39,825 nucleotides of DNA from Escherichia phage vB_EcoP_S523. A program made the translations under genes and the position numbers. Below, piece after piece: positions 5,790 through 39,825 of the stretch. The notes under the pieces were generated by a model, which searched no databases, had not been told where the DNA came from, and saw nothing but the letters and a program-made list of their open reading frames with translations. The stretch lies in sequence record MH031343; one strand, given 5' to 3'. The first letter of the stretch is position 1. Every line of letters starts with the position of its first letter.

Positions 5790-5973
5790 GATGATTTCCT
5801 TAGTTGCAGTGATTATCATAAAGGCTTCTCTTTCGAGTCACCTTGAGTTAATCGCTGTTGTCGTCGTCATCTCAAGAGTGCTTATTGTCCAAATTGTTAA
5901 AGAGCTTTAAGTGCAGGTTTGTTAGCACCGAGTCACTTTCAGTGTGTGACCTCACAAGAACGCTATGTCGTAC

Positions 5974-6003
5974 ATCTTACATCTTGTTGCTACTGCATGT
6001 CAA
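5974..6003 (-). promoter_or_regulatory. sigma-70-type early promoter, TTGACA-N18-TAAGAT
   Basis: Minus-strand -35 TTGACA (6003..5998) and -10 TAAGAT (5979..5974); same hexamers as recalled T7 A2. Confidence 0.6.
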
Positions 6004-6068
6004 CCACTTTGTTTCTCACCGTGACACCTCATGGTGTTTCAGAGGGCGACCAGTTGTTGACGACTGCT

Positions 6069-6097
6069 ATACTACGTTATTGCTTTCGTTGAGTCAA
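6069..6097 (-). promoter_or_regulatory. sigma-70-type early promoter, TTGACT-N17-TAGTAT
   Basis: Minus-strand -35 TTGACT (6097..6092), 17-nt spacer, -10 TAGTAT (6074..6069). Confidence 0.6.
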
Positions 6098-6204
6098 CCA
6101 CTTTCGTATGTCTGGTTGATGACTACTTGAGACCCTTCAGCCTTACCAGATAACTCTAGGTCTTGTCTGGTAGTTGGTAGCGTTGTGTCTCTCAACTGGT
6201 AGCC

Positions 6205-6233
6205 ATTAGAACATAGTTGTTTCTTAGAGTCAA
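6205..6233 (-). promoter_or_regulatory. sigma-70-type early promoter, TTGACT-N17-TCTAAT
   Basis: Minus-strand -35 TTGACT (6233..6228), 17-nt spacer, -10 TCTAAT (6210..6205); upstream-most of three. Confidence 0.5.
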
Positions 6234-6319
6234 CCCCTTAGTTAGACTTTAAGTTATCTTTAAGTGGTCTTTAAGTTAGCACTATAAGGAAGGGATTAGT
6301 AATAAGACTATAAACAACC

Positions 6320-6342
6320 ATTCTCAATAGTGAGTCGTATAA
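6320..6342 (-). promoter_or_regulatory. phage RNAP promoter (phiOL-like, left end), TTATACGACTCACTATTGAGAAT
   Basis: Match to T7 promoter core ACGACTCACTAT on minus strand, upstream of the host-type early promoters. Confidence 0.55.
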
Positions 6343-6479
6343 AGGCTATTGACTATAAGCCAGCTTTAAGGCACTATAAGCACTCAGTCAATTCTACTTG
6401 TCTCTCTCATTACTCAGAGACTGCTAAACAGAGTAAGATAGTGATTCTCTTAGTGACGTAGCCTACTGGTCACTGATAA

Positions 6480-6930
6480 ACATAAGGCACCGACTGAAGG
6501 TTAACATAAGGATAGCCAGCCATAAGGATAGACATAAGGTGTTAACTCTAAGAGGTCATAAGGTGTTAACTCTAGGGTCACTTACAGATAGGGACACAGA
6601 GAGGTCCACATATAGTATCATTAAGTCACTCTAAGCCCTATATCTAGTGGTAACACCTAGAGTTAACCCAATGTCACACATAAGGATTGACATTAAGTAA
6701 ACCATAAGTTACCATAGGGGCGCTCTCTTTGAGTGGACTGAAGGAGGCCATAGGGGGGGAAACACTTTGTATGAACTATGAGATACCCTCTCAGATTTTT
6801 CTGTAGGATTCTTAAAGGGGGTACATCAAGTCTCATAAGGTTAACCACAGAGGCTCTATCATAAGGTGAGACTACGTGAGAGACCCTAAGAGACCCTGTA
6901 GACCATAGAGAGTGGTACATAAGGGGTTAC
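6480..6930. repeat. terminal-region short repeat array (about 12 copies of CATAAGG-like motif; minus-strand CCTTATG) spanning the inferred concatemer junction
   Basis: Recurrent cataagg / ccatagg / tcataaggtgttaactcta motifs between phiOL and gene 19.5; analogous to the CCTAAAG repeats of the T7 left end. Confidence 0.55.
6771..6783 (-). other. inferred mature genome left end (minus strand begins TCTCATAGTTCAT...); terminal repeat collapsed to one copy
   Basis: Reverse complement of 6771..6783 is TCTCATAGTTCAT, followed by CCCCCCC-TATGG; resembles the recalled T7/T3 genome start TCTCA(C/T)AG... and lies between the last late gene and phiOL. Confidence 0.4.
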
Positions 6931-7016
6931 TCTTAGAGTTGACTTCTTACAGTGATTATAGGGAAGATGTATATCGACCATAATCACTAAGAGCGCACTA
7001 AGCGCCGATGAGCAGT

Positions 7017-7172
7017 CTAAGGAACACAAGTGAGTAGAGAACAAAGCAGAGTCTCCAGTTCACCGATGTGTTCAGCACTAGATGCGAGACCAATGGAAGC
7101 AGCAAGTACAACGAGAAATTTGTAAGTCACTCGATGCGTTGCCAGTGTCTTGAGCACGGATAGTAAGCGCAT
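7017..7172 (-). CDS. gene 19.5-like small protein, 51 aa
   Basis: Hand-translated ORF MRLLSVLKTLATHRVTYKFLVVLAASIGLASSAEHIGELETLLCSLLTCVP with AAGGAGG RBS; resembles recalled T7 gp19.5 (HRVTY.FLVVL); downstream of phiOR. Confidence 0.5.
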   Translation of the reverse strand: MRLLSVLKTLATHRVTYKFLVVLAASIGLASSAEHIGELETLLCSLLTCVP

Positions 7173-7329
7173 AGAGCGTCCTCCTTGTTATACTTGATGG
7201 TTGCACTGTTAGTAGGGATGTAATTACTATTACCATCATCCCTCACTGTAAGGGTCTCTAAGAGTTAGTCACTAAGTATGCACTTTGCATATGCAGTCTT
7301 TAAGTGTCTTTAAGTTGTCTTAGGGTGCC

Positions 7330-7352
7330 CTTCCCAATAGTGAGTCGTATTA
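7330..7352 (-). promoter_or_regulatory. phage RNAP promoter (phiOR-like, right end), TAATACGACTCACTATTGGGAAG
   Basis: Strong promoter match located after terminase gene 19, directing transcription across the genome junction. Confidence 0.75.
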
Positions 7353-7439
7353 ATTTCTTCATGTATATCAGTAAGTTACTCAACGGTAACGTAGCGGTAC
7401 TAAGTGCTTACCTATGCACCTTTCCCGCATACTTATCTA

Positions 7440-9197
7440 TTACCACTCAATGAAGCAGCTAGAGTCTCCATCGTCCTCGTAGTAGATGTCTACGCCACCA
7501 GCCTCGTAGCTATGGATAGCATCACCACCAATGGTCTGTTTCTCCATGTGGTGTTCAAGGAACTCAAGGGTCATAGCTTCCTCACCTACCTTAGAGTCCA
7601 CCTGCATCCCTTCACGAAGGAACTCGATACCCAATGCGATAGCATCAAGACGGTCATCGTGTGCCACAGCGCCCTTCTCACGAGTCATACGGGTCATCTG
7701 ATAGAACGCACTGTAGCGAACATCATGTTTCCCATCAAGGTCACGAGCGGTCTGGTAGTCCTCACGGATTACTTCGTCACGGATGATAAGGCGGTGTGCA
7801 CCCATCAACGGTTCGATAGTATCGCAGATACGCATCTCCTTCATGCCACGAGCGCGAATCTCTTCTAAGGCACACTTGTGGTGCTTCAGGAGAACCGGAG
7901 AGAATACCTTACCAAACATACCATCACCGAAGTTACTCTCGTGTACGACCGTCTGTACCTTCCACTGCTTGGCCTTCTTAGCGAGCTTCTCTAGGGTAGG
8001 GTCATCGTAGCCACCACGGAACCCACCGACTTCCATCAAGTAGATGTAGCCGTTCAGGGTGTAGAGGACCGCGTAACCCGTTTCATCCTTACCACGACCA
8101 GAGGGGTCAATGACGAGAATCTTTTGCTGGTACTCAGCGGTCTTAGAGGAACACACATGGAAGCTGTGAATGTCGTCACCCTTCAGACCCACGTTAGGAA
8201 GTTCCTCATTGCGGTTCTGACGGTTCGGCAACCACTGGTAGGACAATGGGGCACGTTCAGTGTCCACTGCGCACACGATAGCGTCACGGAGCCTCAGAGG
8301 GTACTTCTCGGCATCACTCAGGTTAGGGTTGAGCATGAACTGTAACGTGTAACCAGCTTTACCATATTCGAGTTCACGTTCACGGAGGTCATCCATATCG
8401 AATCGAACAGGGTCAGTAGGTTGTCCACGAAGTAACTCATAGCCATCATCATACTCGGCCTTAAGCATAGGAGCCAATCGGTCGCCATAGTAGAGAGCCT
8501 CAGCATCATTACGTGGATACTGTGCTGGCCAGATTACTGTGCTATACCCTTTGTTATCCTCAAGTTCCTTATAGAGAGTCATCTCGGTTTGAGGTGTCCC
8601 AAGGTAGATAACACGAGAGGTAGGCAACGGCTTAAGCAACGCAGCAAACTCAGTTACCAACGTCCAGAGCTTCTCACGGGCAGAACTCGTAGAACTGTTG
8701 CCGGGAACCTCAACGTCATCCGCAATGATAATATCAGCACGGCTACCAGTCAACTGACCAGTAATACCTACAGACTTCACAGAAGGTGAGTGGTCGGGTT
8801 TCGCCAAGCCTACGTCAAAGCTAATCACAGAGTCACGCTGTCCCGGTCGAGGTTTCAACTCAGCGAGGAATGGCAGCAGGTCAATGATGTTCTTAATGAA
8901 GATGGAGTTAGCATCCGCACGTTCCTTAGAGGCAGACACGATGAGCACCTTAAGTTGAGGGTCACGCCATAGCACCCACACAACGAACGCACAGGTGATA
9001 AAGGACTTGCCGATACCACGGAACGCCTGAAGGATAAACTTCTTGTGGTCGCCATTAGCGAGTGTACGTGCCATATCAATCTGACACTTGGTTGGTTTAG
9101 GTAAGTTCAGAGCCTTCCATAAGACGAACAGGAAGGCCACGAAGTCACCCTTAAGTTGCGCCACGATGAGCGCATTCTTGTTTGCTTGAGTAGACAT
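7440..9197 (-). CDS. terminase large subunit (gp19), 585 aa
   Basis: Near-colinear with T7 gp19 ([54 protein letters not shown]). Confidence 0.95.
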
Positions 9198-9212: not shown

Positions 9213-9770
9213 TTACTCGGCAGATTTCTCTAAGGCAGCAATGCGCTTCTCAAGAGCCTTGATAGTGTCGGTCTTAGACACAGCCCCGTCGATGTTACTA
9301 GGTTGGAACATAACGGAAGCGCTCTTCCCTTCGCTGTCCACGAACTGTGTACCAAATGCACTATCAGACGCAGAAAGCGTTGCATTGACTAATGAAGACA
9401 CACCACCTTCCGGTTCAGGGTCAGCACCAGTCCACTCTTTGTATACGTCGATTCGAACCATACCGAGCCGCTCAGTGCTTTGCTCATTCAGGAACACCGT
9501 CATGAACCCGCTACCCGGTTTAGACTCGACGGAGCCGCCCCAAGTGGACATAAGGGTCTCGAACGTAGCATGTTGCTCAGTGGTGCCATCACTCAGTTGG
9601 ATAACGTATTCAACCTTAGAGTAGCCATCAACCTTAACCATCTCCGAAGCTGGGATGTCGATACGCCCAACACGAATGCCAATATTGTTGCGGTCATACA
9701 CATCACGACTGTCTGGTGAGCGACCATTGATGGTCCAGAGTGTGCGGGTTCTTGAGTTTGTAGTAGCCAT
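9213..9770 (-). CDS. hypothetical protein, 185 aa, between the spanin genes and the terminase large subunit gene
   Basis: ORF with ATG at 9768-9770 and AAGGAG RBS, packed tightly between gene 18.5 and gene 19; no TM segment; C-terminal heptad-like KALEKRIAALEK; no T7 counterpart at this position. Confidence 0.6.
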   Translation of the reverse strand: MATTNSRTRTLWTINGRSPDSRDVYDRNNIGIRVGRIDIPASEMVKVDGYSKVEYVIQLSDGTTEQHATFETLMSTWGGSVESKPGSGFMTVFLNEQSTERLGMVRIDVYKEWTGADPEPEGGVSSLVNATLSASDSAFGTQFVDSEGKSASVMFQPSNIDGAVSKTDTIKALEKRIAALEKSAE

Positions 9771-10313: not shown

Positions 10314-10583
10314 TCAGTTAAGTGTGTACTTCTCATCTTCAGTGAGGCCATCAGCACCAACTAGGTTCTGGTACTCTTCGAGTCCATCTGCCAGTCCACC
10401 AAGGATGTTACGGTCTGGTTGTAACTTGGAGACTTGGAACTTATGGCGCTCTAACAGTTTCCCGATTGCGTTGTACAATTGAGGTGTACGGCGTTCATCG
10501 TTCTGCAAGTCAGCAAGCATACGTTGAGCCATCTCAGTGTCCAGCATCTCAAGGAATTGAATTAAGGACTTATCATTAGACAT
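10314..10583 (-). CDS. terminase small subunit (gp18), 89 aa
   Basis: MSNDKSLIQFLEMLDT...; same length as T7 gp18. Confidence 0.85.
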   Translation of the reverse strand: MSNDKSLIQFLEMLDTEMAQRMLADLQNDERRTPQLYNAIGKLLERHKFQVSKLQPDRNILGGLADGLEEYQNLVGADGLTEDEKYTLN

Positions 10584-39775: not shown

Positions 39776-39825
39776 CAAAAGTTAATCACAAAGGCCACCC
39801 GTGAAGATGACCTTTAGTTTAACTC
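39776..39825 (-). promoter_or_regulatory. conserved ~50-nt structured element (putative RNase III processing site, R1.3-like); copy A, continuing into window start
   Basis: aaaagttaatcacaaaggccacccgtgaagatgacctttagtttaactc; last 19 nt identical to window positions 1..19; lies between the phi1.3-like promoter and the ligase RBS. Confidence 0.45.

Follow-up and report, generated by a model that had tools for sequence, protein, structure and literature searches.

Where does the genome of Escherichia phage vB_EcoP_S523 begin and end, and what is the role of the gene-free DNA between its last late gene and the promoter that opens its early region? The question is posed by sequence record MH031343, a stretch of 39,825 nucleotides that is referred to here in its entirety as the window. 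The initial annotation described about 600 bp of non-coding DNA leading up to a phiOL-like promoter and singled out positions 6400-7016. The gap exists, but it extends from 7016 to 6343 and measures ~670 bp, of which 6400-7016 is the larger part. The sequence of this region and of its relatives makes it very probable that it is the concatemer junction of a T7-like phage (genus Berlinvirus), with a single 194-bp direct terminal repeat and flanking processing signals.

The form of the record explains much of what is seen. The window is a complete genome of a Berlinvirus (the Berlinviruses are T7 relatives) that is circularly permuted and reverse-oriented, with its genes on the minus strand. The Berlinvirus records PhiV-1, PYps49T and PYPS50 are ~92% identical to it across 22.6 kb, and 101 phage records match the junction when a phage collection is searched with 7400..6200 (minus strand). 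An identical 19-mer, ATGACCTTTAGTTTAACTC, stands at positions 1-19 and 39807-39825, and the joint of window end and start is contiguous DNA in relatives, in the gene 1.2-1.3 region. Because the relative D226 carries this 19-mer only once, contiguously, between genes 1.2 and 1.3, the window is a circularized contig with a 19-nt overlap; its unit length is 39,806 bp when the overlap is counted once. Segment 6783..6590 is likewise found once in the window. Loss of one copy and a circularized contig are the usual outcome when a genome with direct terminal repeats is put through a short-read assembler (PMC10438801), and the single copy and mid-contig location of the repeat are an artefact of short-read assembly, as the initial annotation had anticipated in proposing a repeat collapsed to one copy. 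Virion DNA would have a length of ~39,806 + 194 = 40,000 bp with the second terminal repeat added.

The ends themselves were located by alignment to relatives with annotated termini (Table 1). Terminal repeats are annotated in Kvp1 and BA14 (194 bp each, at both ends) and in FE44 (193 bp), and the genome ends of Kvp1 were determined experimentally by primer walking. Over its full length, segment 6783..6590 can be aligned with the repeats of Kvp1 and BA14, both boundaries included. On the left, the BA14 and FE44 records (TCTCATAGTTCAT...) match the window from 6783 base for base, and the Kvp1 record begins one base later. On the right, record ends map to 6590 (BA14, FE44), 6591 (Kvp1) and 6589 (PYPS50, BSP161). 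These alignments support 6783 as the left virion end and 6590 as the last repeat base, with a 1-nt ambiguity that arises between the Kvp1 and BA14 records, Kvp1 being shifted at both ends. The end sequences are also of the conserved kind, with TCTCAYAGT... on the left and ...CCCT then ATCTGT on the right. On the minus strand, the predicted repeat opens with TCTCATAGTTCAT (6783-6771) and closes with CTCTCTGTGTCCCT / CTCTGTGTCCCT. A mature left end at 6783 had been suggested beforehand from a resemblance to the T7/T3 start, and the alignments agree with it: the T3 record starts TCTCATAGTTCAAGAACCCAAAGTACCCCCCCCATAG. A C7 run had been described as following TCTCATAGTTCAT; the run is there (6759-6753), 11 nt further on rather than directly adjoining.

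Table 1. Features of the junction of MH031343 and of the genes and promoters around it (window coordinates)
Feature	Position	Strand	Evidence or remark
phiOR-type phage RNA polymerase promoter, TAATACGACTCACTATTGGGAAG	7330..7352	-	Aligns to BA14 phiOR and Kvp1 phi19.2
Gene 19.5 (51 aa), last gene before the junction	7017..7172	-	96% to Kvp1 gp19.5; phrog_2193, E=5e-24
Right-side heptamer array (SRR-like), exact copies starting at 6924, 6866, 6840	6834..6924	-	Motif search
Conserved block just outside the left end, CCCTTTAAGAATCCTACAGAAAAATCTGAGAGGGTA (begins CCCTTTAAGAATCCTACAGAAAAATCTGAG..., ends ...GTA)	6784..6818	-	Nearly invariant in 9 Berlinviruses
Direct terminal repeat as predicted by alignment, 194 bp, one copy	6590..6783	-	Aligns to both ends of Kvp1 and BA14 and to the left end of FE44
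ATCTGTA, differing in one base from the class II pause/termination signal ATCTGTT of T7	6583..6589	-	Directly after the last repeat base
Left-side heptamer array (SRL-like), exact copies starting at 6563, 6539, 6527, 6511, 6487	6481..6563	-	Motif search
phiOL-type phage promoter, TTATACGACTCACTATTGAGAAT, start of the early region	6320..6342	-	Aligns to BA14 phiOL 353-375; promoter core
gp18 (small terminase)	10583..10314	-	73% to T7 protein; phrog_1351
gp19 (large terminase)	9197..7440	-	81% to T7 protein

The surroundings of the repeat are those of a T7-type junction. It lies between the phiOR-type promoter and gene 19.5 on one side and the phiOL-type promoter on the other, and the phiOR-type promoter is upstream of gene 19.5 and directed toward the junction. 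The promoter core TACGACTCACTAT is matched 10 times, exactly in 7 cases and with a single mismatch in 3, and always on the minus strand. Gene 19.5 had been named beforehand as the last late gene, ending at 7017, and this identification holds. Both subunits of a T7-type terminase, gp18 and gp19, are encoded. Several local features accompany this arrangement. Repeats of ACTTAAAG type with a 10-11-bp periodicity occur directly downstream of phiOL (6247-6278) and phiOR (7296-7321), and the ACTTAAAG word is nearer to the T3/T7 heptamers than to the Berlinvirus word CCTTATG. An ORF of 185 aa (9213-9770, minus strand; phrog_20446, E=6e-126), with no function assigned, lies between gene 18.5 and gene 19, a position at which T7 has no gene. 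Among relatives, SWJM-03 carries a ~400-bp insertion between phiOR and gene 19.5 that adds an ORF, and ETEP21B has an HNH endonuclease gene directly after gene 19.

Conservation was assessed across nine Berlinvirus junctions: the window, Kvp1, BA14, CarlSpitteler, P694, SWJM-03, DS_BP2, pEa_SNUABM_57 and P151. The 14 bases of the left end, TCTCATAGTTCATA, are kept in eight of the nine genomes, and the right end with its adjoining site, ...TGTGTCCCT followed directly by ATCTGTAA, is kept in all nine. The near-invariant parts are the block preceding the left end, the first repeat bases, several interior blocks of the repeat, and the right end with ATCTGTAA. The block preceding the left end (6784..6818) is a candidate for the sequence recognized in making the left-end cut. 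The most variable part is the DNA just beyond the repeat. The window has a short (GA)n run in the region after the repeat, GAGAGAGA (~6396-6404); in CarlSpitteler there is a long GA microsatellite, and a left-side 26-bp unit is present in about five copies. The GA and 26-bp expansions in CarlSpitteler indicate, therefore, that the post-repeat region is prone to slippage.

Short repeats are the most conspicuous feature of the junction. The heptamer CCTTATG (CATAAGG on the plus strand) occurs 14 times in the whole window, and nine of these copies are inside 6481-6924, all on the minus strand. For 617 bp of one strand, shuffling predicts 0.025 copies and the density elsewhere in the window 0.063, which gives a Poisson P for at least nine copies of 1e-20 to 4e-17. 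Three one-mismatch copies, also on the minus strand (CCCTATG at 6755 and 6719, ACTTATG at 6709), bring the number within 6481-6924 to 12, in agreement with the initial annotation's figure of about 12. Three copies precede the terminal repeat, four are inside it (one exact, at 6685, and the three near copies) and five follow it. Successive spacings are 58, 26, 85, 36, 10, 24, 122, 24, 12, 16 and 24, so that the copies are interspersed rather than arranged head to tail. Tandem Repeats Finder did not detect the heptamer arrays; its only reports were a two-copy repeat of 10 bp at 6879-6897 and, next to the promoters, the ACTTAAAG-type repeats. The left-side array contains a two-copy 24-bp tandem unit with a duplicated core of 18 nt, CATAAGGTGTTAACTCTA (plus strand), exact at 6533-6550 and 6557-6574 and thus at 24-bp spacing; the second copy extends 11 nt past the upper limit of the array. 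The longer duplicated units that had been remarked on are thereby accounted for. Short direct repeats thus flank the terminal repeat on both sides, in the manner of SRL and SRR, with 3 + 5 exact copies of a word that is not that of T7.

The heptamers admit two interpretations. To our knowledge, no role has been established for the heptamer arrays of T7, and a literature search on CCTAAAG or pacB found no relevant paper. One possibility, which we consider conceivable but on balance unlikely, is that the heptamers are sequence-specific sites for a packaging protein, for example the small terminase gp18, and set genus-specific packaging like the R sites of lambda cosB. In each of the genera compared, arrays flank the repeat on either side, yet the word is not constant: T7 and T3 use CCTAAAG, Berlinviruses CCTTATG, K1F CCTACAG and gh-1 CCATAGG. 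All copies are on the same strand, and three right-side copies are present in all nine Berlinvirus junctions, which would also suit a binding site. Against this, the left-side count ranges from 1 to 8 among close relatives (the repeat interior has 1-3), and it varies because a 24-26-bp tandem unit expands, as in CarlSpitteler and FE44. A T7 mutant is viable without gene 19.5 and the 'm' element next to it, which counts against heptamer binding as well. T3 and T7 have the same heptamer, and yet packaging is reported to be restricted in both to the phage's own DNA (PMC3276506). The comparison of gp18 establishes that the machinery is present and says nothing about what reads the heptamers. Since their number varies freely among relatives, the heptamers do not appear to be the core signal; most likely they are accessory, genus-specific repeats that aid processing and not the primary recognition signal.

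The sequence directly after the repeat requires separate consideration. In T7, a class II signal of the phage RNA polymerase sits at the concatemer junction, and any base change in it is described as abolishing termination by the T7 enzyme (bioRxiv 10.1101/2021.01.11.426313). The polymerase-lysozyme complex paused at this signal is reported to interact with gp18/gp19, which starts maturation and packaging (PMC3276506). The window does not have the exact ATCTGTT on the non-template strand; it has ATCTGTA, which agrees in six of seven bases, and the A at base 7 recurs in all nine Berlinviruses and in K1F and gh-1. Its placement is that of the T7 signal, at the right edge of the junction, in sense orientation, with phiOR ~750 nt upstream. 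The bases after it, AGTGACCCTAG, contain no T run, as suits a pause rather than release. ATCTGT starts no more than one base from the annotated or reported repeat end in T7, T3, Berlin, Kvp1, BA14 and K1F, and BA14 annotates positions 193-200 as 'concatemeric junction'. On the sense (minus) strand of the whole window, ATCTGT is found a single time (6589), where Markov models of order 3 to 1 predict 5.5-15 copies; the antisense strand has 17. Kvp1 has 2 sense and 13 antisense copies. In T7, the junction copy is joined on the sense strand by just two more, in the early genes 0.7 and 1. This rarity on the sense strand is compatible with selection against the signal within transcription units and supports such a view without proving it; it is weaker than it first looked, ranking 38th of 2617 hexamers for strand asymmetry in a genome that is transcribed one way and in which many hexamers are strand-biased. 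ATCTGTA is outside the strict class II family, though by analogy with T7 this candidate pause site likely works in a similar way. If ATCTGTA does work in Berlinviruses, K1F and gh-1, then A at base 7 would be tolerated, with cognate enzymes, in a class II signal that is supposed to be invariant. A more far-reaching joint proposal is that the heptamers are a fast-evolving, genus-specific recognition code that co-evolves with the packaging protein and, separately, that ATCTGTA is a working variant of the pause signal. We regard the two together as decidedly unlikely; if true, the heptamer code would set which DNA a phage packages.

Other readings of the region fare much worse. The physical ends might lie elsewhere, or the genome might be permuted, in which case the region would be no more than repeat-rich spacer DNA between genes, or else a secondary origin of replication. 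The window lacks duplicated ends, and in T7 the regions of phiOL and phiOR have been reported to act as (secondary) replication origins (bioRxiv 10.1101/2024.04.20.590424), but both boundaries coincide to the base with the annotated ends of relatives, including the experimentally mapped ends of Kvp1. Several independent records stop at the same two positions, and the terminase encoded is of T7 type, which makes ends at other sites highly improbable. Equally improbable as the driver of repeat duplication is a hairpin made by an inverted repeat across the right boundary. The window does have a 12-nt exact inverted repeat there (one arm, GTTAACTCTAGG, inside the terminal repeat, the complementary arm 14 nt beyond it), a length reached by 0 of 200 shuffles, and P694 has one of 10 nt; in seven of the nine Berlinviruses, this stretch is no better than shuffled sequence. 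The inverted repeat being missing in those seven, the hairpin was rejected as a conserved mechanism. That the region encodes a small protein is scarcely credible: a 75-aa ORF exists (6920..6693), BA14 has an 'unknown product' CDS over the region and Berlin has its ORF1 inside the repeat, but the frame from the homologous ATG stops after 10-16 codons in Kvp1, SWJM-03, DS_BP2 and P151, pEa57 has GGT in place of the ATG and a stop after 10 codons, the frame shifts in BA14, CarlSpitteler and P694, and conservation tracks DNA motifs rather than codons, so the ORF was rejected as a gene for want of a frame conserved among relatives.

Searches for other element types complete the description of the region. 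Rfam gave no match at E<=1 in 5800-7600, and no intrinsic terminator was found in 6000-7400. A sigma-70-like promoter on the plus strand, directed leftward, lies inside the repeat at 6687-6715 (TTGACA, 17 nt, TACCAT; 10/12 matches), within the most conserved block of the repeat. It resembles the leftward 'A0' host promoter that is annotated in T7 and inside the T3 repeat.

Taken as a concatemer junction, the region likely serves in the joining of concatemers, their cutting and their packaging, as in T7. By analogy with T7 biology, replicated genomes would join head to tail through the repeat, leaving one copy per junction. Late in infection, the phage RNA polymerase would start at phiOR, cross gene 19.5 and the repeat, and pause a few bases past ATCTGTA. 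The paused complex would then help the terminase-prohead to cut after 6590, which creates the right end. Cutting a second time, before 6783, together with DNA synthesis, would duplicate the repeat and place a copy at both ends of the virion DNA. For T7 itself, one repeat per concatemer junction and synthesis of the second copy during maturation are described (PMC10438801), and phiOR plus the junction are enough to package plasmid DNA (bioRxiv 10.1101/2024.04.20.590424; PMC13236587). The practical benefit is that a start and end can be assigned to the genome: with the predicted left end at 6783 (minus strand) and a 194-bp repeat appended at the right end, record MH031343 can be re-oriented and completed to ~40,000 bp. 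The biological yield is another instance of the conserved T7-type junction, an element type that is already well known.

Comparison with known systems begins with Kvp1, BA14 and FE44 (repeats of 193-194 bp), which share with the window the genus, the 194-bp segment, its TCTCATAGTTCATA start and its end, TGTGTCCCT followed by ATCTGTAA; also in common are the CCTTATG heptamers and, on the flanks, phiOR, 19.5 and phiOL. Identity to the window is ~88-92%, or 92-93% by megablast over the aligned right-end segment. Peculiar to the window are its five-heptamer left array, the two-copy 24-bp unit and a C7 run where Kvp1, BA14 and FE44 have C5-C6. Unlike those records, it holds the repeat once, as a circularized contig.

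T7 has the same order of parts, with a 160-bp repeat beginning TCTCACAGT. Its left end has TCTCA.AGT as in the window, with AAAAATCTGAG just before it; T7 reads ...ATAAAAATCTGAGTGACTA directly before the left end. At its right end, CTCTCTGTGTCCCT is followed by ATCTGTT (...GTGTCCCT, then ATCTGTT), where the window has ATCTGTA. The C-run is followed by ATAGG in T7 and by TATGG in the window. CCTAAAG occurs three times inside the T7 repeat, in eight exact copies plus variants after it and several times before it, in same-strand arrays as in the window. The differences are the word (CCTAAAG versus CCTTATG), the repeat length (160 versus 194 bp) and the rest of the repeat interior, which is not alignable by eye, whereas the terminase proteins are 73-81% identical. 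T3, with a longer repeat (231 bp), has its first 12 bases, TCTCATAGTTCA, in common with the window and a C8 run near its left end. Its repeats are CCTAAAG and CTTAAAG, and its right border is ...TGTGTCCCT followed by ATCTGTT (...GTGTCCCT, then ATCTGTT), again with T where the window has A.

More distant genera retain the same boundaries to differing degrees. For K1F, a repeat of 179 bp is reported, and base 180 is the first of ATCTGT; KP32 has ...GTGTCCCT followed by ATCTGTT in the same ...CCCT context; in gh-1, two ATCTGT copies flank the end of the annotated 216-bp repeat. The left end TCTCAYAGT is found in T7, T3, K1F and KP32 but not in gh-1. The border ...CCCT followed by ATCTGT is found in T7, T3, KP32 and, approximately, gh-1, whereas K1F and Berlin have ...CTCT before ATCTGT. 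As far as the compared records indicate, both cut-site sequences and the ATCTGT site are fixed across the subfamily (Studiervirinae), and it is the heptamer that changes by genus. The cos site of lambda (cosQ-cosN-cosB) is a functional analogue only: it too is a concatemer junction, with repeated sites for terminase binding and cleavage at fixed positions (PMC2366019), but it generates 12-nt cohesive ends with no repeat duplication, gives phage RNA polymerase no role and has no sequence relation to the junction in the window.
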